A DNA stretch of 64,000 nucleotides from Owenia fusiformis (Eukaryota), in assembly GCA_903813345.2 (NCBI GenBank), contig CAIIXF020000001.1:11346001-11410000 (forward strand). The letters are read 5' to 3'. Every line of letters starts with the position of its first letter. Position 1 is the first letter of the stretch. This document shows positions 35,316-62,300 of this stretch, in pieces. The position numbers and the translations under genes are program-made. Under the pieces are notes generated by a model that was not told the DNA's origin, did not search any database, and saw only the letters and a program-made list of their open reading frames with translations.

Positions 35316-37105
35316 TCATTCAGAATCCGTGTCAGATTCTGTTTTTGATCTTGTAGAAACGCACAGATTCCTTCTGAGGAACGACCTAATTGCGTTCCGC
35401 TTGGTTTTTTCCTCAAGTGACACTTTTTCGGTTATCTCGACTGTTTCTGTTCCCCCAATTTGGCCGCCTTGTGCTTCCATGTCGGCAATATCATTTTCAC
35501 TGTTGGCATACCTATCTGCATAAGTGTCAATATAAGTATCAGTTTCGTACGCATCGTCAATGTTATGAAAATTCTCAACCTCGGAGTCGTTTTCATTATC
35601 TTCGTCGTCTTCATTATTCTCTTTATCATCGTCTTCGTCATCGTCTTCATTATTCTCTTCATCATGGCCTTTGTCATCGTCTTCATTATTCGCTTCATCA
35701 TCGTCTTCGTCATCGTCTTCATTATTCTCTTCATCATCGTTTTCGTCATCGTCTTCATTATTCTCTTCATCATCGTATTCGTCATCGTCTTCATTATTCA
35801 TTTTATCATCATCTTCGTCATCGTCTTCAATATTCTCTTCATCATCGTATTCGTCATCGTCTTCATTATTCGCTTCATCATCGTCTTCGTCGTCGTCTTC
35901 ATTTATCTCTTCATCATCGTCTTCGTCATCGTCTTCATTATTTTTGTCATCATCGTCTTCGTCATCGTCTTCATTATTCTCTTCATCATCGTATTCGTCA
36001 TCGTATTCATTATTCATTTTATCATCGTTTTCGTCATCGTCTTCATTATTCTCTTCATCATCGTCTTCGTCATCGTTTTCATTATTCTCTTCATTGTTGT
36101 TAAGGTTCATCCTGAGTTTAATATAGATAAGTCGTGTCACTGCGTATTTACAGAAGGATTTGTAGATTTTATCGAAATCTGTCAAATTTGGGCGATACTT
36201 TAATTCCAGCTGTAAAAATACATTGTGCTATATGTATTTTGCATACAACGATCACATTTTCAATTTTCTGAAAAGTGCTGGTCATTTTAAAAGCAATAAA
36301 ACGTACTTTGACTATTCGTATTTACGATTATTTGATTAACAATTCAACCTGAACGTACAACTTTGTTCCGGAAGTGCGAGATGAAGGCATCTATTGTGAC
36401 ACCATCACAATATGTAGCAGAATGTTCGTTTGTATTCATATCTAGGGATGATGGTCTTCCCCAATTTCTAGGCACTACCAAAGTACCGCCGGAAACAAAC
36501 ATTTTGTATATGTCGTTATGGTTGGAGGGAATGGTCGCAGTGCTGGATGGTTCGGACTCATGCCTTCTTTTAAAAGCTCTATTAAAAATTGCATAAGAAG
36601 TATTACCAGATCGTCTTGCAATGTCCGATTGGGTCGTAGAAATAGCGCCATGTCCCATGTATCTACGGAACAAACTAGATAAATTTGCCCGATGATTTGC
36701 CACGTCTCTTGATGTTTCGGGGCTATACGTTCCTTCTCTGCGATTTCCGTAGCTTTGTGGAGCTCGATATGGAACATTCGTAAATCTTGATACGTCAATT
36801 GCGTCTATATTCAACTCTGCTGATCCGGCTGACGAGTCTTCTACCTCTTCGCTTGATATAGAAGTGGTATCTTCATTATCATAATGAGGCAAATTGTAGT
36901 TAAACTCGCCCTCTTCAATTGGCATTGAGGGGGTATCTTCATTATCATAATGAGGCAAATTGTAGTTTAACTCGGAGGCTGAAAATGTGGCGCCTCGTCC
37001 TCTTGGGTTGTACTCTTCGGATTGGTCTGGAAAATTGTAAATACCTAAATTCAAGGTCCATTTTCTCAAATTGAATCTTTTGATCGTTAAAGCTCTTAAA
37101 CACAT
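35316..37105 (-). CDS. Orphan protein with long Asp/Glu/Asn-rich repeat; probably one spliced gene
   Basis: Two long stop-free ORFs (36344-37105, 35316-36185) can be joined in frame by a 149-nt GT-AG intron (36358-36210: RNKV|gtacgt...tttttacag|LELKYRPNLTDF); TATAAAAG upstream, AATAAA downstream on the minus strand. No family recognised. Confidence 0.55.
35595..36100 (-). repeat. Coding ~36-bp tandem repeat encoding (NNEDDDEDDDEE)n
   Basis: tcatcatcgtcttcgtcatcgtcttcattattctct unit, about 13 degenerate copies. Confidence 0.92.
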
Positions 37106-37207
37106 TCTTTTTTCACTTATAAAAATCGATATTGGATTATTTTAAAAACGAGTAACGTTTTCATAAAATTTCCTTCGAAAATCTGCATCTTTGTTATGCC
37201 TTCTTCC

Positions 37208-40978: not shown

Positions 40979-50745
<9,767 letters not shown>

Positions 50746-54832: not shown

Positions 54833-57800
54833 ATTTAGATCATGATACAGACTAATTTGAAATGTACAACTGATTTCAATCAGACTGTATATTGATTTCA
54901 GAGTAGTAATTAATGTACTTAGTCAGGTATGAGTTGATGTCAATGGCCTGTAAACTAGTTCAATGACTCTACTAAAAAACATACTTCATATTCATGATTG
55001 ATTGTTACAGTAACTCAAGATTGTTTCATTTAATTCTTGACATTTTGTGAATGTGACTAACACCATCCTGCAAAACACATGTATATTGATATCAGTTTAA
55101 TTTATATCGGTTTCTTTATACAAAATTGTGTTTTAAAGTATGATATTGTTACACCAGCTAATGTGTGGGCACATGTACAGATTATGCAAGCATTCACTTT
55201 ACAGTTTAAGGGATACAATTTTTCACAAATAAATAGTGAAATTGGCCCTATTCTACTAGCTACCTATAAATAATGTAAATGTATTTATATGCAGAATTGT
55301 GAACTTTTTGAAACAAGAGGCACTAAACTAAATGCCACTGTTCAAAAGGTTGCAGTAATATGCACATTCTTCAACTTTTAGTTAAATTATATTCAGAGCT
55401 AACATGTACAGTATCTAGTACACATAGGTGCACCATCAGAAGAATAACTAAAATGGCACTAATATATTTTTGAGATTTGCACCTGTACACCCATCTTGCC
55501 TTCTAAGCTAACATAAACAGGCACCCATGTAACCTTTAGGGCTCTTTATCAATTTGCTATCATTATAGCCCTATTTTTGCTTCAGACTTAAGTAGGAGCA
55601 AATTTAATAGTAACAAAAATGCTAAGACGAGATCATACCAGAGTTTAGCTACTTCTGGATAAAGGAAATGATATAAATTAACTCGTGTGTATAAGAGCTG
55701 CTACTAAGCATAAAGACGAACCTGCCAATTTCACAGTTTTCCATCTCGATCATTCACTACAGTACAGTTATAGTGCAATTTTCATGGTAAAAATTCATTT
55801 GATGAAGCAAATTACAATGTAGTGTTTTTTCATAGTCTGTACTATGCAATAAATAGATAATAAAATTATTAACAGATCTTATAATAAATTACAGGAAATA
55901 CACACGTTGGCAGGGTGAGATCTAGGTACAAAATACAATAAAGCATAAAATACAATAAGACAATGAAAATGTATTAATGATTATGACGCAAAGTTGTATT
56001 CAATCTGTTTTGATGTGAAGTAACACCTTACAACTTAGTTGCAATATTATCCCATAAAGGAAGAAATGATGTGTATGATATGGAGAAAATTGTCAACATC
56101 AACATTTTTGGGATTATATCAGTTTTAAGAAATTTGATCTGATACAGGTAAAGAGTAATGTTTTTAAACATGTAAAATAGAGATGAAGTGACAACATATA
56201 AAGCATGATGCACATCAACATAAACCCAAGTCCCCCAATGAATAAATAATACATGTGAATATGAGTGTTGACAATGAAATGAAGAAAGCTATAAATATTA
56301 TCTTTGGTAATTTAAAAGGCATTTAAGTATGGATGTGATCACAATATTTTCTCAAAACATTGTAAAGACATATTATAACTGTCTTTGAGATCAGATCATT
56401 GAAAGTGCAGATAGATATTTTCTAAATTATAATATACAATTATTTGGTTGTTTGCATGAGGTGCAATGCTAATTTGATATAAAGAATAAATGAGACTAAA
56501 ATAATATATATCCTAGATGCCCTAATAAGACCTGATGAAGTTTGATGAATTCTTGTCAAGTTGAAGCTATCGTACGATGCAAGAAATGCATTACCTCATT
56601 ACAATAAGGTCTGCAATGAAGCCTTACATATATGCACTACTTCAGACATCAACTTGAAATCACCAATCTCCATTTGGTTATCCTTTATCATGGGCAACCA
56701 CTTAAATTCAGCTGTATCACCTTCAAAATGCTACATATAACATCTGCATTTGCAGCTGTAGCAAGGATAAAACACTAAAAGGTTATTATCACATTTGTCA
56801 GATCATCAAATACTACTGTATACTTGTCGAGGAAATACTGACTTTTTTGATTTTCGATGAGGACCACCAGATGACATGAAATCTTGAGATACAAATGAAA
56901 ATGATCTGTTACTGCCGAAAAAAAGTTATGGTGCTTGAAACATTTCATTTTGTACAAACTTTTTGAATTTTGCCTTATAATATCCATGCAACCCTCATAA
57001 GGAGTTTAAATCAATGTTTCAATATTCATTACGACTTCACTGACCATTCAAGCTGCAGATCTAAATAAGGATAATGTTGACAATACAGTAGATTCACATG
57101 ATACGAGGCATTAACATGCAAAATGTCACCACCTACCATTTGTTTCAGATGCTGAACTATGTCATGAAAAAGTTGGACACAATTCAATATGTCAACACTC
57201 ATGGTGGTGACATAGGCATAACATATTAATAATAGTTTTCATATGTAGTAAAGCATATAGACAATTACAGGGATGATTCTATTACTTCACATAAAGTGAA
57301 TGATAATGAACAACAAATGCCACAAAAACTACACAAATACTATAAGGCAAAATATTTGCCACTATTGCACTTTGCCATTCATTTCAATAAATTCATGCAA
57401 TCAAGGTCTGATATAAAAACAGCATGTTTTTTAATCCAATGCTATTTTTCTATCTGATCTATAATTCCAGACTCAATTTGAGCATACTTTTAATGTTATA
57501 CTAATTTGTGCCCTTGCCGTATCAATCATTTTTTACTGAATTATATCGCACATGTTTCTGGTAGACAATTGTACTTGTTAAAATTTTATAAATAATCCTA
57601 AAAATAATTATGTTCACTGTTATGGATTTATGAACATTAAATAATCGCCCATAATGATCACTTATCACTCGTTCAAAAGTGACTAATAAAAATTTATGCA
57701 ATTTATCATGGACAAATGACTAAAATAAATATCTATGTACATGTACGATCATTACAAATAAACGTGAACAGATTTCAGGATGTGCTAGCGTATAGCACAT

Positions 57801-57926
57801 ACTGGCACCCATACATGTGGCAATCCCAATTGCTCTTCAGTCTTTCGAGACTATCTGGCTTGGTGGCATCGACTAGAGACAATGCTGTTTTTCACTCCAT
57901 ACTGTTTATGTCAATTTGTACCTGAA

Positions 57927-58124
57927 TAGGCGGTGGGGGGCAGGCTTCCTAGATCACAACAACGAATCATAATATTGATTCATTACCAAGATCTAACTCA
58001 CAGATTTACTCAATGAGTAAGTACAGACTCATTGAGTCAGCACTCACTCGTTAAGCATCATCATTGTGTGAGTTAGTTACTTGGAGTTGTTGTTATCCAG
58101 AAACCCCTCGCCCCAGCCTAGTCA
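57927..58124 (-). promoter_or_regulatory. Candidate stop-codon readthrough cassette of SPSB (UGA-CUAG plus downstream RNA structure)
   Basis: CAA TGA CTAG context; in-frame extension to TAA at 58079-58077; complementary segments 58067-58076/57993-58002, 58027-58037/58008-58018 and 58106-58120/57927-57944. Confidence 0.5.
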
Positions 58125-59391
58125 TTGGTACAGCAGATAGTTCTTGATAGAAGTAGGCAAGGGTAAATTGTGTATTTCATGGAGGCGATTTTTCCCGAGC
58201 TGCTTGCGGATCACCCGCCTACTGATGTCCATAAGAGGGAGGGGTTCAGCTGGAAAACACAGAGAGAAAGAATTACATTAAAGTGAAAACATTATGTGTA
58301 TCATCTCATTGTTATTTTGTTCACTTGTTTGCTAGCATAATTTCAGATCCTAGATATGAATCTGCTGTTATTAAGATATGTTTTTATCATTAACCTTTTA
58401 TGAAAAAAGTATAATTATAGGTTTATTTCTAGACCTAGTGATAATTGAATTTTGCTCTCCATGTGAGCTTATTTGCATATGAGCCAAGAACTAATAAAGA
58501 ATGCATCAGACATTTTCACTAACATAAGAAATACTCTTGATTCAAAATGTGGCTTTGCATTTACAGATATCTAAATCTTTTACTCACAAGAAGTTTAGAA
58601 ACGATGTTTTAACTTATGAAATTTGAACATACTATTTGTACTTTTGTAACTGTATTTGAAAAAAATAATATTGATAAAAAATTCTTAAACTTACGATCTA
58701 AGCCATTAATGTATCTCATTGTTATTTCACAATGGCCCCATACCGCACTAACTAGAGGGTAGAGTTTCTTGCCTTTGAGCCCCCTGAAGGCAATGCCCAG
58801 GAATTGTCCATCTACTATAAAGCTCATGGTGCCTTCATCCATATCAAGCACTATTCGAAATGAGTCTGGCACGACAAATGTCTCATCAGGATTCAACAAT
58901 GTTGGATAAGTTCTTCCTGGGGTTGTTTGCACGTCATGATATAACTTATTGCGGCCGAGGTCCCAACCCCAAGATTCTTTATTACTACCAACCAAGGACT
59001 GATAGCCGACGCAATGTAAAGGAGCATCTATTGTGCCTACACCAACTACAGCATGTGTGCCTCTTTGTCTTGTACTCCAATGTACTTCCCAGACATGGAG
59101 GCCACGTGTGAAGCCATAACGGCCACGAATACAGTCTGTGCTTTGGGCAACTGGGTGCCTATGGAACGTCATCTTATCATCTTCTTTTACAAATATATTT
59201 AGAGATCTATCATCTGTGTTCCATGAATGTTGTAGTTGCACTTCCCGTGGAGCGGGAGGCATATCTAGAAGCATGTCTAATCTCGCTGGCTTCTGGAAAT
59301 CTGGATTGTACGCCAGCTCTCGCTGGAGTTTATTGTTATAGTTTGGTTCACGGGAGATGGTCTTTATCCCACCTGATACTTTCTGACCCAT
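58122..59391 (-). CDS. SPSB1: SPRY domain-containing SOCS box protein (SPSB1/4, Drosophila gustavus orthologue)
   Basis: Exon 59391-58695: [11 protein letters not shown]...[13 protein letters not shown]...[17 protein letters not shown]...[14 protein letters not shown]...[11 protein letters not shown]...[19 protein letters not shown]. Exon 58249-58122: SOCS box [19 protein letters not shown]...[14 protein letters not shown]. Acceptor of the first coding exon near 59480; upstream non-coding exon not located. Confidence 0.95.
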
Positions 59392-62300
59392 ACTCATTTG
59401 TGGTGGCATACACACGACACTAACCAATATAATAATACACACTTGGTGGTGACACAGGTAGTCTTATTGTTTTATGTTCCTGAAAGCAAAAAAAGAGATA
59501 TTTATCACATGGAAATCACAAAGAAAATGGAACAAAAGTGACAAGGGGCTAACTACTGAGTGTACTGAAACTACCTGATGTTTCCATTCCAATGTGACAA
59601 AACAAAATCTAATAAAAAGAATGAGACTCATCACCATTGATTTTTTAACATTTTGTGGAAAGTGGGTTCAATCCAACTTGTATGACACTGCTCCTGGAGA
59701 ACAAACCTGTATTAAAACTGTTATGTAGAATGTAGTAGAGAGATATTTACAAATGGTTAGAACTCAAGCTTATCAACGTATTTACGAGTATAATGTAATA
59801 TAACTAAAACTGAAAGAAAATACAGTTCATATATTTCTATTTTCCTTTGTATAATTCCATTGTCAGATTGAACATTATTGATTAGAAGTCAGATGAATCC
59901 ACATGTTTCCGAGTTATACTGGCAGAATAGTATTACTTTTTCATATTAGTCGTAATATTCCATGTTGCTATCATTGATTTTGCATCAGTTAAAATGAGAC
60001 AGCTGCGTCAATAGGCGTCTTGCCACATAGCTTTTGTGGCATGACCGATATGAGTTCTCAACCTCAATTCCAACAAATATGGTTCTCACAGAATAAACTT
60101 AGTTCATAAAAAATAATTATGGTTCCAATCAAGTCTCTATAAAACTAACCTGTTCTTATAGTTGAGTTCCATTCTTCATATGTTATATAGATTCTATTTA
60201 CATGTTATTGTTTGCTAACATTGAATTCAAACAAAAACATCCTTGTTTACTGAACTATAAATCCTTAGAGAAATTGGAATGGTGGCGATGTATTTCCTCC
60301 TTACATGTTAGGTGCCTTATTTATATAATGACCTCATATACATACAGTTGTATAAACTGTATACCATTGCTTCCAAATAGTCACTGTTCAGAGAACTCAA
60401 CACAGATGGGGCAGACAGCTGTTTCTCCTATGATATAATTAACCAGATTGAACAAAGTGAACCAATATTGACTGCAATCAACTTATAGACATCTCTGACG
60501 GTGGCTGGCACCAAAGTGTGGACGTAGAGAAGCCATTCAATTCACTTAGTCATGAAGGAGTTAATCATTCCAGTTGGAACAAAAAAATACATATCTTTTA
60601 AACTGTATTAAAATTAGTGACTTTGAGGCATGTTTTCAATTTCAATGTGGGCACCATATAAGTGATAATAGCCCAAATTCTCTTGATAATTACACCTATG
60701 ACATAAGTGATGAGGATGAGGGATCTCCTACAGAGATGTTTGAGATTGATGCAGCTAATGACACAGCTAATGACACAGCTATACAGCTGCTATATTCACA
60801 GGTAATCATATTGCATTTGCTATCATGGTTCAGGTAGAACATTACTTACCTTACCGGTCTATATTGCAATCAAGAATGAATGTCACACCTGCTACAGGTG
60901 AATGCAAATAAAAGTGACATTGTGGTGATGTCCCTATAGGGAACGACAGACTGTGTAATTATTATTAATTAACGGTTTGTATGTAACATCCTGATATTAT
61001 ATATTACAGAGTTATCACAGACATGGCTTTTATTAGTCTCACAGACCTCAAATGAATAATCAGGATACAGTATATTCCTGGGACAGATGAATCCTATGAA
61101 GATATAGCCATAAACATAATGTTGTATATAGGCCTATATATACATCATACTTTTCCTTAATCCTTGGAAAGATATTCCACCGTGCTCTTATCACTATGTG
61201 TAAAACTTGGCCTGATTGAACTCCAGCAAATATTTTTTGAAGCCTAATCTTTATATTATACCATGAGTCAGGACATACTCCACTTAACCTGTTTAAACTT
61301 AGAGTACCCTACTATCTAACCATGTGGCCATAATCCATTAATCCAAAAGTAATAATGCTATTAGAAATCTAGGCACATGGCACAAGCATTATACGATTAA
61401 ATCCCGAAAGACGAAAGGAGTATTGGAAAGTGTGGCACCAATGTCAGACGTTATCAAATCTATGTCGGAAAATCAATGGAGAAAGTGAAAGCAAAGAAAA
61501 CCGACGAATTAAGATGAACTGTTGAATGAAACAGTTGAATGCACAGTTGAATGTTATCTTATCCAATATTCTCAAGCAATTTAGATACTAACACTTTTTA
61601 GACAAGCACTGTAAGTAACTTGACTTATGGGAGATTTTTTACATTTTGGAAGGGGTAACACATGTTATCTCCCATGTAAAAATATGATGACGCAAGATAG
61701 TACACCGTGTTAGATAAAGTAAAATTGATATAACATGTACTTATTCAAGCTATAACATTGTAATGATTATCTTAAATCATGGTTTAGATAGTGTCATACT
61801 TTTTAACTAAATCAATTACTGTATTTTATTATACATATATAATAGTGCTATAATAGATAATAGATTTGAGAGCATATAAAAAGTACCACAGTAGCTTGGT
61901 CCACACAAAAAGAATTGATATAAATTACATGTTTACTAAGCATTTCATGGCTGATGATAGTTTAGTCAATGACGATACAGAACCTAAAGCAACTGAATAC
62001 CATTGTGATATTCTTGTTAACAGATGGAAGGACAAAGAGTCTAGATGTTCAAGACAACACCTACCAAATGACCTAAATCACAGTCCGTCTTTCTGTCTCT
62101 ACAATGAATGAATTAATCACATATAATAAATGTATATTGCTTTCCCTGGATGACCTGATCTAAGTCAGCATTAAAAGCAATTTCTATTCTGAGAAAATAA
62201 TCTATTACTGATGAAATAGAATTTCAGCTTGGAGCATTTCTTTCGAGCCCACTCATCAATCTCAATGTTGTCTCAATATACAGAGTAGCATCTTATCTAT

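Follow-up and report, generated by a model that had tools for sequence, protein, structure and literature searches.

Readthrough at a UGA codon followed directly by CUAG is known from vertebrate genes, which include OPRL1, OPRK1, AQP4 and MAPK10 and also MDH1 and VDR. The four mammalian genes that are confirmed or efficiently read through carry UGA and then CUAG; deletion of CUAG nearly abolishes readthrough, UGA-CUA alone supports 1.5%, and in human cells UGA with CUAG proved both necessary and sufficient for readthrough at the per-cent level (PMC4132726). UGA_CUAGGC is the sequence of OPRL1, Ross River virus and Getah virus, OPRL1 is read through at about 31% with its own upstream sequence and at about 5% without it, and UGA-CUA is also found in alphaviruses and in giant viruses of amoebae (PMC4132726). 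UGA_CUAG occurs in 23 human genes (39 expected), and a positive PhyloCSF score (coding-conservation signature) was obtained for only 4 of them (PMC4132726). [quoted passage not shown] The extensions that result act variously, and that of VDR reduces the calcitriol response (PMC5868278). Among annelids, stop-codon readthrough has been proposed for the FVa/EFLGa precursor of Platynereis dumerilii, where it would yield a second product from one mRNA; repeated neuropeptides lie downstream, are also present in Capitella teleta, and are supported by antibody staining (PMC3890597).

SPSB1, SPSB2, SPSB4 and GUSTAVUS bind peptides of the form [D/E][I/L]NNN (PMC2911665, PMC2923778), as found in VASA (DINNNN), Par-4 (ELNNNL) and iNOS (DINNN). 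By ITC, SPSB2 bound wild-type iNOS peptide (DINNN core) with a Kd of 13.3 nM, and alanine substitutions changed this to 21.6 μM (21,600 nM) for D23A, a loss of about 1,600-fold, 23.5 nM for I24A (about 2-fold), 17.2 μM (17,200 nM) for N25A and 826 nM for N26A, with binding of N27A not detectable; positions 1, 3 and 5 of the motif are essential and position 2 is tolerant (PMC2911665). Asn27 and Asp23 have been named the two most critical residues (PMC11203437). [quoted passage not shown]

The locus described here was found in a 64-kb stretch of Owenia fusiformis DNA (the window, meaning the whole stretch analysed; all positions are counted within it). Its UGA is followed directly by CUAG, as in the vertebrate genes, and the hexamer CUAGGC is that of OPRL1; its extension of 14 codons is short, as is the 13-residue extension of MAPK10 (PMC4132726). 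Stop, motif and extension of those genes are conserved across vertebrates, with a coding score for the extension, whereas none of 76 loci shares the context or the extension with the window gene, for which readthrough is only predicted. In this respect it resembles the 19 of 23 human UGA_CUAG genes with negative PhyloCSF, in which a leaky-looking context stands before an extension that is not conserved (PMC4132726), although the human genes rest on dense comparative data and the window gene has been compared with distant orthologues only. The tail encoded after the stop, which probably forms a disordered segment, has an Asn triplet with neighbouring acidic and aliphatic residues, as do the VASA, Par-4 and iNOS peptides. 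The order L-D, however, differs from the D/E-I/L of the substrates and places the acidic residue one position too close to the Asn triplet, and the tail lacks counterparts of Lys22, Val28 and Lys30, which flank the core in iNOS and raise its affinity; relative to the substrate peptides, the ITC table would imply a loss of a thousand-fold or more. Set against the repeated, shared and antibody-stained neuropeptides of the Platynereis precursor, the window gene offers one short, unconserved tail, known from sequence and RNA.

Gene model and transcript evidence

The gene, on the minus strand, is a two-exon SPSB1/gustavus orthologue with a SPRY domain and a SOCS box, and RNA reads show it to be transcribed (Table 1). 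Exon 1 matched Pfam SPRY (PF00622) at E 1.2e-20, and the SPRY exon matched, by phmmer, the GUSTAVUS structures 2ihs and 2fnj at E about 4e-113 (3.9e-113 for 2ihs), the human SPSB1 structure 3f2o at E 1.2e-110, and a human SPSB4 structure. The last exon matched Pfam SOCS_box (PF07525) over profile positions 1-39 of 39 at E 1e-15; the SOCS box is C-terminal, with an LPLP Cul5 box, and the protein ends in ...NYLLYQ, as do SPSB1/gustavus orthologues. The best matches to the gene in a search of 5.8 billion protein clusters had 81-83% identity and came from gastropods, a nemertean, a chiton and a brachiopod, a spread that marks the source as a lophotrochozoan without a near relative among those clusters. 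The segment AVWGHCEI and a second segment of 13 residues are identical in the window protein and GUSTAVUS and invariant in the orthologue alignment, their assignment to the NNN pocket being by position only. These domain, structure and cluster matches bear out the first-pass annotation, which had named the gene an SPSB/gustavus homologue, and its quotation of the sequence around the stop agreed to the letter with the minus-strand reading of 57800-59000. Three in-frame ATGs are present at the start of the gene (59391-59411, minus strand); since orthologues begin M-x-MGQKV, 59397 is likely the start codon, and an upstream ATG may add four residues. The normal adaptor product has 276 residues and ends in ...YLLYQ.

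Table 1. Features of the SPSB1/gustavus locus, numbered from the first letter of the window.
Feature	Positions	Strand	Evidence or detail
Exon 1, coding part	58695..59397	-	ATG at 59397 (MSMGQKV...); N-terminal helices and SPRY; phase 1 at exon end
Intron, 445 nt, GT..AG	58250..58694	-	RNA junction reads
Last exon, coding part, SOCS box	58125..58249	-	Pfam SOCS_box and translation
Stop TGA (UGA)	58122..58124	-	Sequence and RNA reads
CTAGGC (CUAG motif and GC), directly 3' of the stop	58116..58121	-	CTAG itself at 58121-58118
In-frame extension, 14 sense codons, LGWGEGFLDNNNSK	58080..58121	-	Translation
LDNNN codons CTG GAT AAC AAC AAC	58086..58100	-	NNN = AAC AAC AAC at 58094-58086
Second in-frame stop TAA	58077..58079	-	Sequence

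Two raw RNA-seq runs (X22 and X24) and two contig runs, together four runs from three studies under one species label, were placed on 57700-58760. The splice joint 58249|58695 was supported by 83 reads in X22, 101 reads in X24 and one spliced contig in X17, RNA depth inside the intron was zero, and the strand of the reads in strand-specific runs was that expected of a minus-strand mRNA. Read coverage of the 3'UTR was unbroken down to 57700, the edge of the stretch examined, and no second splice joint was seen in the RNA runs within 57700-58760. The sequence, the gene model and its expression are thus matters of observation.

Within 58077-58124, no variant at 5% or more was present in the two raw RNA runs and the two contig runs (depth about 66-132). 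At the stop itself neither T>C (A-to-I) nor any other change reached 5% at a depth of about 70-130, and the four runs from three studies gave the letters of the assembly, which rules out misassembly, common polymorphism and A-to-I editing as explanations of the stop. Two SNPs were found in the SOCS box, both synonymous by codon count: at 58152 the assembly A is the minor allele, with T in 95/96 and 112/161 RNA reads and in both contigs, and at 58212 C>T was present in 40/113 and 39/158 RNA reads. Variants at 5% or more numbered 0 in the 48-nt feature versus 9 in the 377 nt of 3'UTR that follow the TAA. About 1.1 variants were expected in 48 nt and the probability of finding none was about 0.3, so polymorphism says nothing on selection, either way.

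Several other features were recorded elsewhere in the window. Collagen Gly-X-Y exons are found on the plus strand at about 15-27 kb. On the minus strand, a stop-to-stop frame of 303 residues at 35316-36227 is made up almost wholly of Asp/Glu/Asn repeats (NNEDDDEDDDE...), and a frame of 265 residues adjoins it at 36344-37141. A further open frame at 45840-46244 has what we take to be an AGPS-like look.

Stop context, extension and predicted readthrough

The minus-strand letters across the stop are ...TAC CAA TGA CTA GGC TGG GGC GAG GGG TTT CTG GAT AAC AAC AAC TCC AAG TAA, so that the UGA-CUAG context reported in the first-pass annotation is present, and as the full hexamer CUAGGC. The extension has a GC content of 55%, above both the CDS (45%) and the 3'UTR that follows it (33%); at third positions its GC is 79%, versus 43% in the CDS, and only 2.7% of 42-nt windows of the 3'UTR reach the GC content of the extension. 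The extension is a GC-rich island without the gene's own codon usage. The (AAC)3 run is unique in the 64-kb window, where its plus-strand form GTTGTTGTT occurs only at 58086.

On both strands of the window, TGA was followed by CTAG in 5 of 2,799 TGA trinucleotides, which equals the expectation from composition, and the UGA_CUAG context alone is carried by about one gene in a thousand. Extensions of at least 14 codons make up 38% of the 8,061 inter-stop segments of the window, hence the length found here is ordinary. Of the 8,061 segments, 19 encode NNN and 2, the extension among them, encode [DE]NNN. The motif coincidence per extension is rare, about 1-2 in 10,000, and it was spotted post hoc and is not a match to the consensus. 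DNNN behind a readthrough motif in precisely a protein that binds NNN is a striking coincidence; acceptance of a near match widens the space of "hits", and the coincidence was picked after the fact from a scan of very many windows.

By analogy with the mammalian genes, about one to a few per cent of ribosomes are likely to read through the window stop. The first-pass annotation had called UGA-CUAG an established metazoan motif; its effect is shown in mammalian cells and vertebrate alignments, and "metazoan" is an extrapolation. No paper tying SPSB1 or gustavus to stop-codon readthrough was found in literature searches, and CG2944, gus and gustavus were absent from two of the three supplementary files of PMC5100048 and from two files of PMC3840789, a weak negative given that the files are possibly incomplete.

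Directly after the TAA, an imperfect hairpin of 84 nt (57993-58076, minus strand) was found, with a core that is unique in the window. A 151-nt fold containing it had an MFE of -57.4 kcal/mol versus -35.2 for shuffled sequences (z = -6.3), and none of 200 shuffles was as stable. Six SNPs fall in the hairpin, four at unpaired positions and two that break a pair. The hairpin begins 46 nt after the UGA, and it was therefore rejected as a stimulator of readthrough, 46 nt being too far for RNA structure to act on a ribosome paused at the UGA. It may serve in 3'UTR regulation or be a hairpin of small-RNA type.

Conservation of the stop and fit of the tail to the SPSB degron

Metagenome contigs were scanned with an alignment of 26 orthologues, which gave 80 loci, mostly spliced and transcript-like. 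When these were searched by tblastn with the last exon of the window gene, 77 of the 80 were matched and 76 had a readable stop; many are near-duplicates, so fewer are independent. The stops in the 76 SPSB1/gus loci were TAA in 32, TGA in 27 and TAG in 17, with C following TGA in only 3 of the 27. TGA-CTA was found in 0 of the 76 (comparators that are distant, with 61-81% identity over the SPRY exon), and NNN was encoded in the post-stop extension of none of them. The closest loci, in which identity is 78-81% for the SPRY exon and 83% for the SOCS exon, end in YLLYQS-TAG or YLFYQQ-TAG, and in the 13 loci compared by eye, the closest ones included, no similarity of post-stop DNA to the window was seen.

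Protein libraries were searched for the tail as well. A phmmer search with the SOCS box and the extension against 1.84 billion representatives returned 125 hits, none reaching beyond query residue 49, and FLDNNNSK, the last eight residues, is therefore covered by none of the 125. Word-indexed searches of 5.8 billion clusters, for proteins of near length and for longer ones, returned nothing that covers the tail. A recognisable C-terminal motif was present in 173 of 244 proteins, most of which end 0-3 residues after it; typical ends are YLLYQ and YLLYQS, with YLLYR-DRR in arthropods. A conserved TGACTAG, reading frame and NNN, which the first-pass annotation had proposed to seek by alignment across molluscs and other invertebrates, was absent from the 76 loci and the 125 library hits. 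At the depths available there is no conservation, and the stop context and the tail appear, as far as the compared sequences reach, to be specific to the lineage of Owenia fusiformis. The comparators are all distant (the best at 83%, for a very conserved protein), so a recent, lineage-specific function would be invisible to the survey.

Other C-terminal tails were noted in the course of these comparisons. A gustavus-like protein of the nemertean Tubulanus polymorphus (P0006) carries a constitutive tail, NHNNNNNMYPEKR, at residues 276-288, directly after YLLYQ, and contains the only NNN among the 173 readable C-termini. Its AlphaFold2 model, made from an alignment of 32 sequences, had a mean pLDDT of 72.0 and a pTM of 0.67, with pLDDT below 50 for tail residues 278-288. 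Three metagenomic loci (L025, L028 and L036) have tails of 41 residues after YLLYK, and a fourth (L046) has 19 residues after YLLYQ; these long constitutive tails of SPSB/gus loci are rich in Asn, His and Ser (EHNNHYAGKVG...SSSNHHNNHNSI...; DTNYHYFNYKSSDNGNTCS), and [DE][IL]NNN was found in none of the four. Among the proteins P0125-P0245 (for example P0128, P0133, P0136, P0144, P0197 and P0212), many ORFs start in the SPSB last exon and have W at the position of the normal stop, presumably where gene callers read TGA as Trp, so that the ORFs show post-stop sequence. One such group has an SPSB4-like SOCS box (...LKNYLQYQ) with a common W-L-T/I-P-A-E..., and four of its members also share ...HTES... 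in the same frame; the shared sequence may reflect conservation of a 3'UTR or of a readthrough extension within a vertebrate-like clade.

The tail F-L-D-N-N-N-S-K was compared with the degron in both possible registers. With the three consecutive Asn at positions 3-5, position 1 (two before the first Asn) is Leu and not acidic; with the Asp in register, position 5 is Ser and not Asn. LDNNN is accordingly a near and not an exact match to the consensus, as had been noted from the start, and it misses one of the three essential positions in either register. As an essential contact would be lost in either case, affinity of the tail for the SPRY domain is expected to be micromolar at best. Only nine residues of the extension precede the Asp, and since so short a linker would have to start from the far side of the domain, its reach to the pocket in cis is doubtful. 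That SPSB1/2/4 and Gustavus bind [D/E][I/L]NNN, on which the first-pass annotation had built, agrees with PMC2911665 and PMC2923778. Its two further proposals, that LDNNN mimics the substrate and that the tail closes a feedback loop of autoinhibition or self-ubiquitination, are not supported, given the mismatch at positions essential in SPSB2, the placement of the pocket opposite the SOCS box and the lack of conservation in the orthologues compared. A full-text literature search found no paper that joins readthrough with a pseudosubstrate.

Readings of the locus

The reading that we favour, and consider probable, is that the expressed SPSB1/gustavus orthologue has acquired a leaky stop by chance, with a neutral tail whose likeness to the degron is coincidental. 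The UGA would serve ordinary termination and, in this lineage, would have the leaky surroundings CAA-UGA-CUAGGC by accident. Most ribosomes would terminate there and release the normal adaptor, and about one to a few per cent would, judging from the mammalian UGA-CUAG genes, probably read through, add one near-cognate residue and then LGWGEGFLDNNNSK, and stop at the UAA. The extension would then be translated 3'UTR under no detectable selection, and the resemblance of LDNNN to [D/E][I/L]NNN would be a coincidence and not a working pseudo-substrate. That readthrough occurs, and that the tail does nothing, we infer; a weak, tethered or avidity-assisted motif could still matter.

Efficient termination, with no meaningful readthrough because the mammalian CUAG effect is absent in this organism or in this upstream context, seems unlikely but deserves the most weight among the alternatives. 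It draws on the origin of the CUAG evidence in human cells and vertebrate alignments, on the poor transfer between genes of effects outside -3 to +4, and on the strong influence of the -1 codon. The same sources report, however, that CU at +1/+2 acts alike in all three genes tested, and that UGA-CUA is used by alphaviruses and amoebal giant viruses, which argues for a general property of eukaryotic ribosomes or release factors.

A readthrough that is real and has been selected for some other reason, such as SOCS-box assembly with Elongin B/C and Cullin-5, localisation or turnover, with the NNN incidental, is improbable. It would fit the leaky context, the GC-rich island within an AT-rich 3'UTR and the various activities of known tails, of which the VDR extension is an example (PMC5868278). 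Against it, no conservation was found, no motif other than the NNN near match was recognised in the tail, and 14 codons are too short to give a measurable coding signature.

We regard as very improbable a programmed readthrough that yields a minor isoform whose LDNNN tail enters the SPRY pocket, as an autoinhibitor in cis or as a degron for another SPSB in trans, and so makes the adaptor self-limiting. In its favour, the UGA does stand before CUAGGC, chance seldom yields NNN beside an Asp, change at motif position 2 costs little (I24A, about 2-fold), and the SPRY domain is so close to that of GUSTAVUS, solved with a VASA peptide (E 4e-113), that it very probably binds NNN peptides; the Platynereis FVa/EFLGa precursor provides an annelid precedent for proposed readthrough (PMC3890597). 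These points are opposed by the tail itself, in which the NNN register puts Leu where D23A raised the Kd from 13.3 nM to 21.6 μM and the Asp register puts Ser where N27A left no detectable binding. Par-4 needs all three Asn and an acidic carboxylate in contact with Tyr129 and the NNN backbone; the pocket is opposite the SOCS box, with nine residues between the stop position and the Asp, and no conservation was seen in 76 loci, 125 library hits and 173 protein tails. Recoding of the UGA as selenocysteine, its loss through RNA editing or alternative splicing, and an assembly error are suggested solely by the open frame after an in-frame UGA and can be set aside with near certainty: an Rfam scan of 56900-58300 (E up to 1) gave neither a SECIS nor any other match on the minus strand, no change of 5% or more was seen at the stop at a depth of about 70-130, a single splice joint is present in 57700-58760, and four runs from three studies match the assembly.

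A more far-reaching version may be stated as a speculation to which we give very little credence. In an annelid lineage, a few per cent of SPSB1/gustavus would bear the LDNNN tail, the weak but tethered tail would be bound by its own NNN pocket or that of a neighbouring SPSB within CRL5, and the adaptor would throttle or destroy a fraction of itself. If this were true, the constitutive N-run tail of the nemertean protein P0006, NHNNNNNMYPEKR, would be a second, independent instance; an E3-ligase adaptor with a hidden copy of its own degron would represent a new use of stop-codon readthrough, and would offer a way into the control of SPSB ligases. On the favoured reading of a chance leaky stop, the locus is an example of a leaky context that arises without a conserved extension, like most human UGA_CUAG genes. 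It also provides a clean, expressed UGA-CUAGGC candidate outside vertebrates, suited to asking if animal ribosomes in general respond to CUAG.
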